NCBI RefSeq assembly: GCF_001306055.1
Contig: NZ_LGHJ01000020.1
Coordinates: forward strand, 60,001 to 92,000
Source of the DNA: Bellilinea caldifistulae
Lineage (GTDB): Bacteria; Chloroflexota; Anaerolineae; Anaerolineales; Anaerolineaceae
Direction: 5' to 3'
Length of the DNA stretch: 32,000 nt
Part shown: positions 1-2,338 of the stretch, piece after piece
How the letters are laid out: the number at the start of each line of letters is the position of its first letter
Position numbering within the stretch: the first letter of the stretch is position 1
The notes under the pieces: generated by a model
Told to the model about the DNA's origin: nothing
Database searches by the model: none
What the model saw: the letters and a program-made list of their open reading frames with translations, nothing else
Position numbers and translations under genes: made by a program

Positions 1-228
1 CAAACCTTTCGGCGGACGTTGCGGCGCGGTGATCAGGCTTTGCTGGATGGTCTGCTGGCATCTGCGCATCGTCATCTGGCTGCTATTTCGGCAAGCGGTG
101 CGTTGCTGCCTTTTGAAGCCGCCTTACTGGCCATGCTGCTCGAACAAGCCCGCCGGATTGCGGCGCTGGAGGAGGAAATCCGCATCTTTCAGGAGGAAGT
201 GGTGCGGCTGCGCGATGGCAAGGGTTGA
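1..228 (+). CDS. C-terminal end of an unidentified protein (open to the left window edge); Ala/Leu-rich helices followed by a charged coiled-coil-like tail
   Basis: Frame +1 is open from nt 1 (QTFRRT...) to TGA 226-228. The track ORF 19..228 starts at a TTG only because of the window edge. Its stop overlaps the polymerase ATG (215) by 14 nt, which suggests translational coupling. No family motif recognised. Confidence 0.4.
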   Translation, partial: QTFRRTLRRGDQALLDGLLASAHRHLAAISASGALLPFEAALLAMLLEQARRIAALEEEIRIFQEEVVRLRDGKG

Positions 229-2338
229 AAAGACCGGCTGGCTGATGGATGTGTACACCCGTCCGAGCGGTGAACTGGTCTGCTGGTTGTTGAGCGAGGA
301 CGGGCAGCGCTGGCTGCTGCCGATGGATTTTCCGGTTACTTTTTACGCGGCAGGCAGCTTGGCGGTGCTGCGGCAGGCCTGGCGCTTTTTGCGGGGGCGC
401 GGAGTACAACTTTCCCGGCAGGTGCGCCGTGATCTGTTTCACGGAGAGCGGGTTGTGTTGTCCGCAACCTTGGATTTGCCCGGACGTCTGCCTGAGACCT
501 ACCGCCGCCTGGCGCAGGCTTTTCCGGTATTGGATTACTACGATGCTGACCTGCCGCTCTCTGTGCGTTTTGTGGCTGGTACGCAAGTGCCGCTGCTGGG
601 ACGCTGCCGCTTTGAAACCGACGGCCAGCGTTTGTTGGGATTGCAGCCGCTTGAGTCGGCTTGGGAGATGCAGCCCTCGCTGCCGCCCCTGCGGGTGATG
701 GAAATCGAGTGTGACGCCGAGCCGGCGTTGCATCCCCCGCAGGAGATCGTCATTCGCTGCGACAGACGCTGCTATCGTTTTCCCTTGCAGCCCTTGCGTG
801 CCTTTGTGGTCAACCTGCAGGCACTGCTGGGGACTTACGATCCGGACGTAATTCTGACCCGTTATGGCGATACCTGGCTGTTCCCGTTCTTAAGCGAACA
901 TGCTCCGTCTTTCAACCCCAACCGCGACGAGCAGATGAAGGTTGAGTTTCGCCGCGAGCGCAGTTTGTTTGCTTATGGGCAGGTGCTTTACCGCGGGGCG
1001 CAAGCCCTGCTGTTTGGGCGCTGGCACATTGACCGTTGTAATGCCGCTTTGTTTGCCGAAATCGGGCTGACCGGTGCCCTGGAGATGGCACGGGTTACCG
1101 GTTTGGGGGTGCAGGAGGCGGTGCGCAAGTCACCGGGTGCAGGCATTACCGCCATGCAAATGCAGACTGCCCTGAGGGATGGAGTGCTGATCCCGGCGGT
1201 CAAACAGCAAGCGGAAGCTACCCGCACACTGGTTAGTCTGATTCGCTATGATCGGGGGGGGATGGTCTACCAGCCGCTGGTTGGTGTGCATCGTCATGTT
1301 GCCGAACTGGATTTTGCTTCAATGTACCCGGCGATCATGGTGCGTTATAACATCTCGCCGGAAACACTCTACCAGAGGGATGCGCCGGCCGGCTTAATTC
1401 CGCGCACGCTGCAACCCCTGCTGGTCAAGCGTCTGGCGCTCAAACATTGCCTGCATACCCTCGACCGGCGCGACAGCCGTGTAAGCGATTTGAAAGCCCG
1501 TCAGACGGCGCTCAAGTGGCTACTGGTGGTGTGTTTTGGATATCTGGGGTACAAAAATGCCCGGTTTGGGCGAGTGGAATCACACGAGGCGGTTACCGCC
1601 ATCAGCCGCGAGTTGCTGCTGCAGGCCAAGGAAAATGCTGAGGATATGGGATTCACCATCCTGCACATGTATGTGGACAGTTTGTTTGTAAAACGAGAGG
1701 ATACCCGGACTGAAGCGGATTTTCTGCCACTGGCAGAGAAAATTCAGGCAGAGACGGGTATTGGGGTGACCCTTGAAGGCGTATATCGCTGGCTGGTGTT
1801 TTTGCCGGCCTGCCGTGATCAACGCATTCCGGTGGCAAACCGTTATTTTGGGGTGTTTGAGGATGGTACGTTGAAGTATCGTGGCATTGCCCTGCGCCGT
1901 CATGATACCTGTCCGTATGTTGCCCAAACGCAGCTGGATATATTGAGTTGTCTGGCGCAGGCAGATGATCCGCGAGAGCAATGGAAAGAGGCATGGGGTC
2001 TGGTAAACCAGCGGGTGAGGTCATTGCAGCGCCGGCAAGCAGCCATCGAGGGGCTGCAAATGGCGGTCAAACTCAGCCGTGACCCGCAGGCTTTTCGGCG
2101 CCCTTCGGCGGCGGCACAGGCTGCCCGTCAGTTGCAGGCTGAGGGGGTGGCGGTGCGCGCCGGCATGCGGCTCTTCTTCTGGTTTACGCAACAGGGGGTG
2201 AGCGTTGCTCCACCCGCAGCCGAGGAGGTGGACTGGGATCACTATGCACGGTTGGTCTTGCGAGCAGCTGGCGAGATTCTGGATGTTCTCCAACCCGTAG
2301 AAAAGAAACAACAGTATTACCTGCCGCTCTTGAAATAG
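215..2338 (+). CDS. Family B DNA polymerase, archaeal-type layout, with degenerate 3'-5' exonuclease motifs
   Basis: Colinear with archaeal PolB. N-terminal [12 protein letters not shown]...; motif [23 protein letters not shown] (about nt 1304-1369); motif B-like [13 protein letters not shown] (1514-); motif C-like HMYVDSLF (1664-); RGIALRRHD after an NRY (KxY-like) element. ATG 215 (MARVEK...) is preferred over the track start at 29, which lies in another gene's tail; ATG 245 (MDVY) is an alternative. Confidence 0.85.
   Translation: [707 protein letters not shown]

Follow-up and report, generated by a model that had tools for sequence, protein, structure and literature searches.

Introduction

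A three-gene operon of archaea was found to encode PolB2, a family B DNA polymerase with disrupted catalytic centres, together with an inactivated RadA and an alpha-helical protein of ~90 aa (arCOG07300), and the trio was noted in a number of bacteria too, at times accompanied by lexA (Makarova et al. 2014, PMC4104785). The replacements in its active sites led the same study to infer that PolB2 had been inactivated. By contrast, the Sulfolobus representative Dpo2 proved to be a robust polymerase without exonuclease activity, which efficiently extended mismatched or lesion-paired termini (Feng et al. 2022, PMC8764526). This work concerns a 32,000-nt stretch of the genome of Bellilinea caldifistulae, a member of the Anaerolineae (contig NZ_LGHJ01000020.1, positions 60,001 to 92,000; hereafter the window), and the family B polymerase gene that lies close to its start. 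The product of this gene belongs to the named PolB2 group, which originated in archaea and reached bacteria through horizontal transfer. The gene is real but not new, since the three-gene damage-tolerance operon to which it belongs is already in the literature.

Timinskas et al. (2025, PMC11791011) argued that the whole operon passed from archaea to bacteria only once, and gave iRadA-PPB2-PolB2 as the sole order shown by bacteria. The study models one PolB2, one iRadA and three PPB2 subunits as a heteropentamer, describes an arm of PPB2 that carries the sequence MGRT, and assigns the clamp-binding motifs mostly to iRadA, as shuttling motifs that in bacteria match the beta clamp. It also calls the earlier prediction of PolB2 inactivation erroneous. 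Its supplement lists a 'YVD' motif C for Chloroflexota and Anaerolineae PolB2 operons, and its modelled complexes include the Bellilinea sp. pair GIV65311/GIV65312. In a 2026 survey, G2/PolB2 is one of three major groups of bacterial PolB (PMC12926913). The 90% cluster to which the B. caldifistulae PolB2 belongs has GIV65312 as its representative, the two proteins being 92% identical. The work of Kazlauskas et al. in 2020 is said to be among the descriptions of bacterial PolB2 (group G2).

When set beside the described bacterial PolB2 (G2) operons, the B. caldifistulae locus shows no essential difference. It has the same gene order and tight packing, the same decayed exonuclease domain, Y-V-D motif C and D(K/R)GG loop, the MGRT sequence of PPB2, and a RadA homologue that lacks Walker A and carries a beta-clamp motif, although neither lexA nor a SRAP gene is among its neighbours. 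It departs from most Anaerolineae PolB2 operons in the absence, throughout the Bellilinea clade, of the GerE regulator gene that precedes them. The Dpo2 enzymes of Sulfolobus islandicus and S. solfataricus belong to the same family, have the same operon partners, likewise lack the exonuclease, and have also lost the first Asp of DxD. They are mismatch and lesion extenders by experiment, and are induced by DNA damage (PMC8764526, PMC7390963). Compared by description rather than by alignment, they differ in their archaeal host, in the use of PCNA instead of the beta clamp, and in reading I-I-D instead of Y-V-D.

Other known polymerases are less close. The archaeal PolB3 enzymes (5mdn, Pfu, KOD) provide the closest solved structures, and are colinear with the B. 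caldifistulae protein through the N-terminal, exonuclease, palm, fingers and thumb domains, but they are single-subunit proofreading enzymes in which Exo I-III, DTDS, KxxxNSxYG and KxY are intact. The E. coli Pol V mutasome (UmuD'2C-RecA) and eukaryotic Pol zeta offer an analogy, drawn from the literature, in that each joins a damage-tolerance polymerase to a small oligomeric accessory subunit and a sliding clamp; Pol V additionally has a RecA-family partner, and Pol zeta is an extender of family B whose exonuclease is dead. However, the catalytic subunit of Pol V is a Y-family enzyme, and the accessory subunits of Pol V and Pol zeta are not homologous to those of PolB2, meaning the analogy is one of architecture only. 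E. coli Pol II is also a bacterial family B polymerase that binds the beta clamp and has a role as a translesion extender, but it is a distantly related, single-subunit enzyme with an active exonuclease and canonical motifs.

The gene is likely, with a probability that we put at roughly 80%, to encode the catalytic subunit of a bacterial PolB2 'mutasome', acting as a clamp-tethered translesion extender without an exonuclease. This reading builds on the family, operon, motif states, purifying selection and clamp motif observed at the locus, with the activity predicted by analogy to Dpo2, and the architecture taken from AlphaFold modelling.

Identification of the polymerase and its relatives

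The original prediction, made from the letters of the window alone, had called a family B polymerase gene at 215-2338, and an intact open reading frame (ORF) indeed runs there on the forward strand, from an ATG at 215 to a stop codon at 2336-2338, encoding 707 aa. The exact protein is on record for B. caldifistulae (GAP10283.1 / KPL73645.1 / WP_061915105.1), and the gene is located on the 3.7-Mb chromosomal scaffold DF967971.1 of GCA_001050215.2. Its description as an exonuclease-dead family B DNA polymerase draws on the ORF itself, Pfam, HMMER searches and an AlphaFold2 model. The profile hidden Markov model search that had been proposed as a check on the prediction matched the polymerase to DNA_pol_B at 8e-26, and this Pfam scan of the protein returned no DNA_pol_B_exo1 match.

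By sequence, the nearest solved structures are those of archaeal PolB3, headed by the Pyrobaculum calidifontis enzyme 5mdn at 2.6e-29 (105 bits), and in single-sequence HMMER searches the Pyrococcus and Thermococcus/KOD enzymes matched at ~1e-22, Sulfolobus Dpo1 (PolB1) at 6e-14 and E. coli Pol II at 6e-5. A PolB2 profile reproduced this ranking, with 342 bits for PolB3, 234 for PolB1 and 95 for Pol II. The best NCBIfam model, PRK05761.1-2, scored 360 bits, under its cut-off of 516. An AlphaFold2 model built from 55 homologues, with a predicted local distance difference test (pLDDT) score of 87 and a predicted template modelling (pTM) score of 0.84, matched 5mdn and KOD over the full length at a template modelling (TM) score of ~0.70, which bears out the earlier claim that the product is colinear with archaeal PolB. 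The position of the protein among the PolB groups is given here by the ranking of search scores: on this sequence evidence, archaeal PolB2-type proteins are its nearest kin, PolB3 comes next, and PolB1 and Pol II are more distant.

The same searches bear on whether the gene might be an ordinary bacterial Pol II orthologue, with an intact exonuclease and intact motifs, that had been made to look divergent by a misread alignment. A fold search does match E. coli Pol II at a TM score of 0.70, but as it would any family B polymerase, and the single-sequence and profile scores for Pol II fall far below those for PolB3. The NCBIfam Pol II models reached only 24-62 bits, where their cut-offs demand 570-1435; Exo II has a Leu in place of its Asp, in a protein without an exo1 match; and the operon supplies iRadA and PPB2 as partners, which Pol II lacks. 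The alignments place L222, Y486, V438, V439 and F441 where canonical residues would be found, and this explanation, which the original prediction had also set aside, was rejected as having almost no chance of being correct.

The best 120 homologue clusters, of thousands of homologues, are all from Anaerolineae/Chloroflexota and are 53-92% identical to the B. caldifistulae protein, while an exhaustive HMMER search gave 645 clusters (at 50% identity) with E-values under 1e-30. When a single genome was scanned for each species, PolB2 proved to be encoded in at least 569 species-level genomes, the best 80 of which are nearly all Chloroflexota, together with a few contigs that are probably mis-binned. 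Archaeal relatives, from Nitrososphaerales, Thermoplasmatota and Bathyarchaeia, match at 30-33% identity (E ~1e-82 to 1e-88, ~313 bits); they carry I/M-x-D in motif C, and have GRxHID and D(R/K)GG in common with the Anaerolineae PolB2.

Two copies of the operon occur on different contigs in seven of the genomes represented among the top 80 loci, namely as the pairs L014/L015, L018/L037, L019/L021, L034/L061, L070/L076, L011/L046 and L022/L064. The metagenome-assembled genome of Bellilinea sp. KatS3mg046 also has two PolB2 copies, GIV65312 and GIV65365.

Loss of the proofreading site

Residues were assigned through HMMER alignments to 5mdn and to P. abyssi PolB (4flt), supplemented by a profile alignment, and conservation was counted in a 55-sequence alignment of Anaerolineae relatives. 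The motif strings quoted in the original prediction all lie at the nucleotides it had given for them (MEIEC at 698-712, the Exo II string at 863-892, motif A at 1304-1369, KWLLVVCFG at 1514-1540, YVDS at 1670-1681 and NRY at 1838-1846), such that it was the interpretation of some of them, particularly in the exonuclease domain, that had to be revised.

The Exo I remnant is I164-E-C-D-A168 (704..718, +), which the HMMER alignments to 5mdn make the counterpart of FDIET, with the Asp replaced by E165 and the Glu by D167. A strong PPLRV anchor fixes this register, with FDIE(V/T) standing opposite I164-E165-C166-D167-A168, and not opposite M162-E-I-E-C166, meaning the earlier register was two residues off. 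Across the 55 relatives position 165 is mostly Ser (36/55) and rarely Glu (7/55), and is therefore not under catalytic constraint, while position 167 is Asp in 44. At Exo II (863..892, +), alignments to 5mdn and 4flt agree with the proposed change of the catalytic Asp to Leu (L222), although the Asn has become Tyr (Y217) rather than the Gly that had been read there. Position 222 is Leu in 49 of the relatives and Phe in the remaining six, with a carboxylate in 0/55.

The Exo III segment had been thought to be deleted. The stretch from Exo II to Exo III has lost around 50 residues, and the canonical Tyr of YxxxD is gone, but the site itself is not simply deleted: in its place stands G268-R-W-H-I-D273 (1016..1033, +), with D273 invariant. 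This GRWHID is invariant in Anaerolineae PolB2, archaeal PolB2-type relatives read G-R-x-H-[ILV]-D, and no mention of the motif was found in the available text of the PolB2 literature. There is a one-residue ambiguity as to what stands opposite the Exo III catalytic Asp, this being R274 by the single-sequence alignment and D273 by the profile alignment.

Whichever Exo III register applies, the Exo II carboxylate is gone in all 55 relatives, and the loss of proofreading in PolB2, as originally proposed, is therefore well supported by the sequence comparisons, which also show Exo I to be unconstrained. With a mean column identity of 0.72, the exonuclease remnant is approximately as conserved as the rest of PolB2, which fits a structural role. 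The best reading is that the domain persists only as a scaffold, its active site apparently having been destroyed.

State of the polymerase active site

Motif A (1304..1369, +), aligned to DFSSMYP of 5mdn, has the catalytic D366 and the steric-gate-type Y371, and D366, F367, S369, M370, Y371 and P372 are all invariant. Motif B (1508..1570, +), aligned to ALKVMANAMYGYLG of 5mdn, keeps K434, but has V438 for the Asn, V439 for the Ser or Ala, and F441 for the Tyr; the whole 21-residue stretch is identical in 55/55 sequences, apart from K447, which is found in 54. Motif C is YVDS (1670..1681, +) where 5mdn has DTDS, with the first Asp replaced by Y486 (54/55) and the metal-binding D488 kept in every relative. 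The KxY motif, aligned to KKRY of 5mdn, has been changed to N542-R-Y (1838..1846, +), in which N542 is invariant within the Anaerolineae, and nearly invariant once the archaeal relatives are added. The HMMER alignments thus uphold the earlier calls at motif B, at motif C, where only the second Asp is kept, and at the Lys of KxY.

In family B polymerases, the metals are bound by the Asp of motif A and by the second of the two Asp residues in motif C, while the Asn and Tyr of motif B contact the nascent base pair. Replacement of these motif B residues would be as expected of an enzyme that tolerates distorted termini. Some PolB2 relatives of ~1240-1280 aa have a LAGLIDADG intein inside motif B, after the residue equivalent to ~441, and others are divided close to residue 385, where motif A ends; P0186 and P0209 are the relatives noted in this connection. 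Inteins typically occupy essential sites of working enzymes, which provides a weak argument for PolB2 activity.

PolB2 is under purifying selection: compared with four orthologues of 81-91% identity, dN/dS (the ratio of non-synonymous to synonymous substitution rates) is 0.085-0.11 overall, and 0.04-0.07 in the palm and fingers. A pseudogene reading was rejected, as the ORF is intact, aligns end to end with its relatives and is evolving under this constraint.

The original prediction had left a choice between a specialised polymerase lacking an exonuclease, and a non-catalytic PolB paralogue. The latter, which was the original reading of PolB2, would make the protein a scaffold or regulator, acting in repair or replication restart together with the inactive RadA and PPB2. 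It accounts for the replacement of the first Asp of DxD, of the KxY Lys and of N, S and Y in motif B, and it was from such replacements that Makarova et al. (2014, PMC4104785) inferred inactivation. However, the invariance of D366, D488, K434, Y371 and the motif B stretch speaks against it, as does the fact that dN/dS is lowest in the palm and fingers. Furthermore, Sulfolobus Dpo2 is robustly active with I-I-D at motif C (PMC8764526), and the prediction of inactivation has itself been judged erroneous (PMC11791011). An inactive protein is hence improbable, and the first of the two alternatives is better supported by the invariant catalytic residues, the dN/dS values and the precedent of Dpo2.

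Between the exonuclease remnant and motif A lies a flexible loop of residues 332-349 (1208..1261, +), identified from the alignment and from being the lowest-pLDDT segment of the AlphaFold2 model. It ends in D346-R347-G-G, the D(K/R) motif of PolB2, in which D346, G348 and G349 never vary, and residue 347 is Lys in 27, Arg in 17 and His in 11 of the sequences. This motif has been described before, and the segment ahead of it was predicted to bind iRadA through a Rad51-like motif (PMC11791011). In that segment the archaeal relatives read E-x-F-K-[ST]-A, retaining an FxxA-like motif before D(K/R), whereas the Anaerolineae PolB2 read E-x-x-[KR]-T-L, without the Phe.

Operon structure and partner proteins

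The window begins inside PPB2, and the original prediction contained neither the operon nor membership of the PolB2 group. It had proposed that the upstream DNA be inspected, and when this was done, genes for iRadA and PPB2 were found to adjoin that of PolB2. On the chromosomal locus of B. caldifistulae, here termed L001, in which window position 1 corresponds to 9787, the three genes are on one strand, with iRadA (177 aa) at 9184..9717, PPB2 (94 aa) at 9730..10014 and PolB2 at 10001..12124. A gap of 12 nt separates iRadA from PPB2, and PPB2 overlaps PolB2 by 14 nt. The ADP-forming acetyl-CoA synthetase gene converges on PolB2 from 17 nt downstream, meaning the operon ends with the polymerase. 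Among the 75 related loci that extend far enough upstream, 73 show the order iRadA-PPB2-PolB2. A Thermoplasmatota locus (L082) has the same three-gene order, consisting of a gene of 167 aa, a DUF8156 gene starting with MGKS, and the polymerase; the product of the first matches the iRadA profile with an hhalign probability of 96.7%.

The 3' part of the PPB2 gene occupies 1..228 (+) of the window, and encodes residues 20-94 of the 94-aa DUF8156 protein WP_061915103.1, as mapped on L001; its start is 57 nt before the window, and the protein begins MGRTVPT. A local Pfam scan of the two upstream proteins, iRadA and PPB2, gave no match, and the DUF8156 assignment therefore rests on the precomputed Pfam annotation and the UniRef name. 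The MGRT start is present in 72 of the 78 PPB2 matches recovered from related loci (75 of which have an intact start), and one more starts VGRT from a GTG codon.

A profile of 43 iRadA orthologues matches P. furiosus RadA over its ATPase core (6e-7), and also RAD51D (0.015). The alignment begins only beyond the P-loop, and the Walker A pattern GxxxxGK[ST] is not present in the iRadA profile. By this comparison, the 177-aa protein is iRadA, a RadA relative without Walker A, reduced to a RadA/Rad51 core that lacks the N-terminal domain and the ATPase residues. Its C-terminus in B. caldifistulae is FVQPALF, which contains the beta-clamp motif QPALF, and Q[PL]xLF is found within the last 20 residues of 53 of the 73 iRadA proteins. 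A loose clamp pattern occurs in just seven of the 55 PolB2 C-termini, and the B. caldifistulae PolB2 tail, QQYYLPLLK, does not match it.

The surroundings of the operon are relevant to a further explanation, that the polymerase belongs to a mobile element (for instance a casposon, a plasmid or a self-replicating element resembling a virus) which integrated beside a tRNA gene. A tRNA-Met gene does lie 230 nt upstream of the B. caldifistulae operon, the 3' ends of tRNA genes are upstream of it in L042, L043, L048 and L049, seven genomes among the top 80 loci have two copies, and the family entered bacteria by horizontal transfer (PMC11791011). Nevertheless, the 22 kb around the operon contain no gene for an integrase, for Cas1, for a terminal protein or for any other element function, and the flanks consist of sugar-metabolism, acetyl-CoA synthetase and chemotaxis genes. 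Together, these 22 kb and the 32-kb window contain only metabolic, transport and chemotaxis genes, terminal repeats not having been searched for. The distribution across at least 569 species-level genomes, with the best 80 nearly all from Chloroflexota and an internal synteny that is conserved, also argues against an element, as does a GC content only slightly above that of the neighbouring genes. A mobile-element polymerase is hence very improbable, and was rejected on the gene content of these 22 kb and the distribution of the operon.

Proposed function of the PolB2 complex

The preferred reading, of a translesion polymerase held within a PolB2 mutasome, would work as follows. The enzyme would descend from an archaeal PolB3-like polymerase, and have entered bacteria through horizontal transfer of the whole operon. 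Its polymerase site would still function through the metal-binding D366 and D488, the triphosphate-binding K434 and the motif A Tyr, while the Asp that opens DxD and the Asn, Ser and Tyr of motif B, all of which are gone, are residues that normally police the nascent base pair. Without proofreading, it could then extend primer ends that are mismatched or paired with a lesion, as Dpo2 does. In the modelled arrangement, PolB2 would be held in a complex with a PPB2 trimer and one iRadA, with the MGRT arm predicted to reach toward the active site. The QPALF motif at the C-terminus of iRadA may bring this complex to stalled forks via the beta clamp.

Several points weigh against this reading. Firstly, the literature that was available contains no biochemical or genetic test of any bacterial PolB2. 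Secondly, the heteropentamer is a computational model only. Thirdly, motif C is Y-V-D in this enzyme, whereas the Dpo2 that was tested has I-I-D. Fourthly, the Phe-x-x-Ala anchor of the archaeal relatives is not kept in the Anaerolineae, and the proposed contact with iRadA could therefore differ. Fifthly, neither a lexA gene nor a GAAC-N4-GTTC box is present in the 32-kb window or in the 22 kb that surround PolB2, such that damage induction is not supported for the B. caldifistulae operon. We take this palindrome to be the LexA (Cheo) box of Gram-positive bacteria, which is also reported for Dehalococcoides.

The identification matters for annotation, as a gene labelled 'DNA polymerase elongation subunit' or 'DNA polymerase domain-containing protein', and the two 'hypothetical' genes beside it, should correctly be described as the PolB2-iRadA-PPB2 damage-tolerance module. 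B. caldifistulae, being a cultured and moderately thermophilic species with a compact operon, would be a reasonable source for PolB2 biochemistry. Given its presence in so many species-level genomes, PolB2 may be a main source of damage-induced mutagenesis in the Anaerolineae, an abundant but poorly studied class.

Regulation and the upstream region

In 53 of the 82 loci that were fetched, iRadA is immediately preceded, in the same orientation, by a gene for a GerE/LuxR helix-turn-helix (HTH) protein of ~135 aa that ends in WDFSxWE. In L006-L079 these GerE genes sit ~1.0-1.4 kb upstream of the PolB2 match (as at 2684..3100 of L007, which has its box at 2657). Of the 50 GerE copies whose upstream DNA is long enough, 42 have an exact GAAC-N4-GTTC box ~28 nt before the gene, flanked by TTGACA-like and TATAAT-like hexamers, and the other eight have a version with one mismatch. 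There are 51 exact boxes in all 721 kb of the loci, compared with ~11 expected by chance. No lexA gene was found in the window or in 81 related loci by tblastn, a search of limited sensitivity that used E. coli LexA as the query. GerE is tabulated in a supplementary neighbourhood table (131 neighbourhoods) of the 2025 study, which does not discuss it (PMC11791011).

A conserved non-coding element lies in front of iRadA, between it and the GerE gene where this is present, with equivalents in ~60 loci, and is located at ~9105..9183 of L001. It is composed of GGTTAAC, C-rich repeats of the CCCAAAATC(A/C)CCC type, a CCCC..GGGG hairpin and, ~6 nt ahead of the start codon, a TAnnnT box, which is a reading of 70 aligned upstream regions. 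TCACCCC-like repeats have a density of 1.9 per 150 nt upstream of iRadA, against 0.2-0.36 in controls. So short a distance between the TAnnnT box and the iRadA ATG suggests that the transcript may be leaderless, and a scan for consensus promoters found no sigma-70 promoter before iRadA in L001. An Rfam scan of the window and L001 returned two tRNAs only; hence the conserved element falls outside the known RNA families.

The C-rich element has been kept in B. caldifistulae and the relatives nearest to it (L001-L005), which have no GerE gene beside the operon, where there is instead a tRNA-Met gene (8881..8953 of L001 in B. caldifistulae), and which have also lost the exact GAAC-N4-GTTC box, none occurring in the 22 kb or the window. 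Several lineages without the GerE gene, including the four other loci with upstream tRNA genes listed above, likewise have a tRNA gene immediately upstream of the operon. Among the best 120 matches to the GerE regulator, none is named as coming from B. caldifistulae. In L051 (box at 2150) and L079 (box at 2681), there is neither a GerE gene nor a C-rich element, and a perfect GAAC-N4-GTTC stands directly before iRadA (AGAACTTTTGTTCT and AGAACATCTGTTCA, respectively), which suggests that LexA may control the operon directly in some lineages.

It is tentatively possible, though doubtful, that in most Anaerolineae the PolB2 operon is wired to the SOS response indirectly, with LexA controlling GerE, which would in turn act through the C-rich repeats on an operon promoter whose -10 box would lie ~6 nt from the iRadA start; the Bellilinea clade would then either be regulated in trans or have become uncoupled. 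Elsewhere in the window, at 16878..18188 (+), a 436-aa protein consists of an N-terminal GerE/LuxR HTH fused to a Kelch beta-propeller, and is weakly similar to the operon-linked GerE, in the HTH only (tblastn 6e-10).

An interrupted OsmC-like gene

An unrelated feature of the window lies at 4577..5080 (-), where the ORFs 4874..5080 and 4580..4861 form one frame that is broken by a TGA at 4874-4876, in the context VSGMAL[TGA]LISHV. When joined with a Cys at the stop, they give a protein of 166 aa, with a Pfam OsmC match of 7.5e-13 that spans the stop. No tRNA-Sec gene was found in the 32-kb window. Beginning 5 nt after the UGA is a stem-loop with the apical hairpin GACGCA-GGU-UGCGUC (dG -15.9, z -1.7), and the locus is either a candidate gene for a selenocysteine-containing OsmC-like peroxiredoxin, or a pseudogene.

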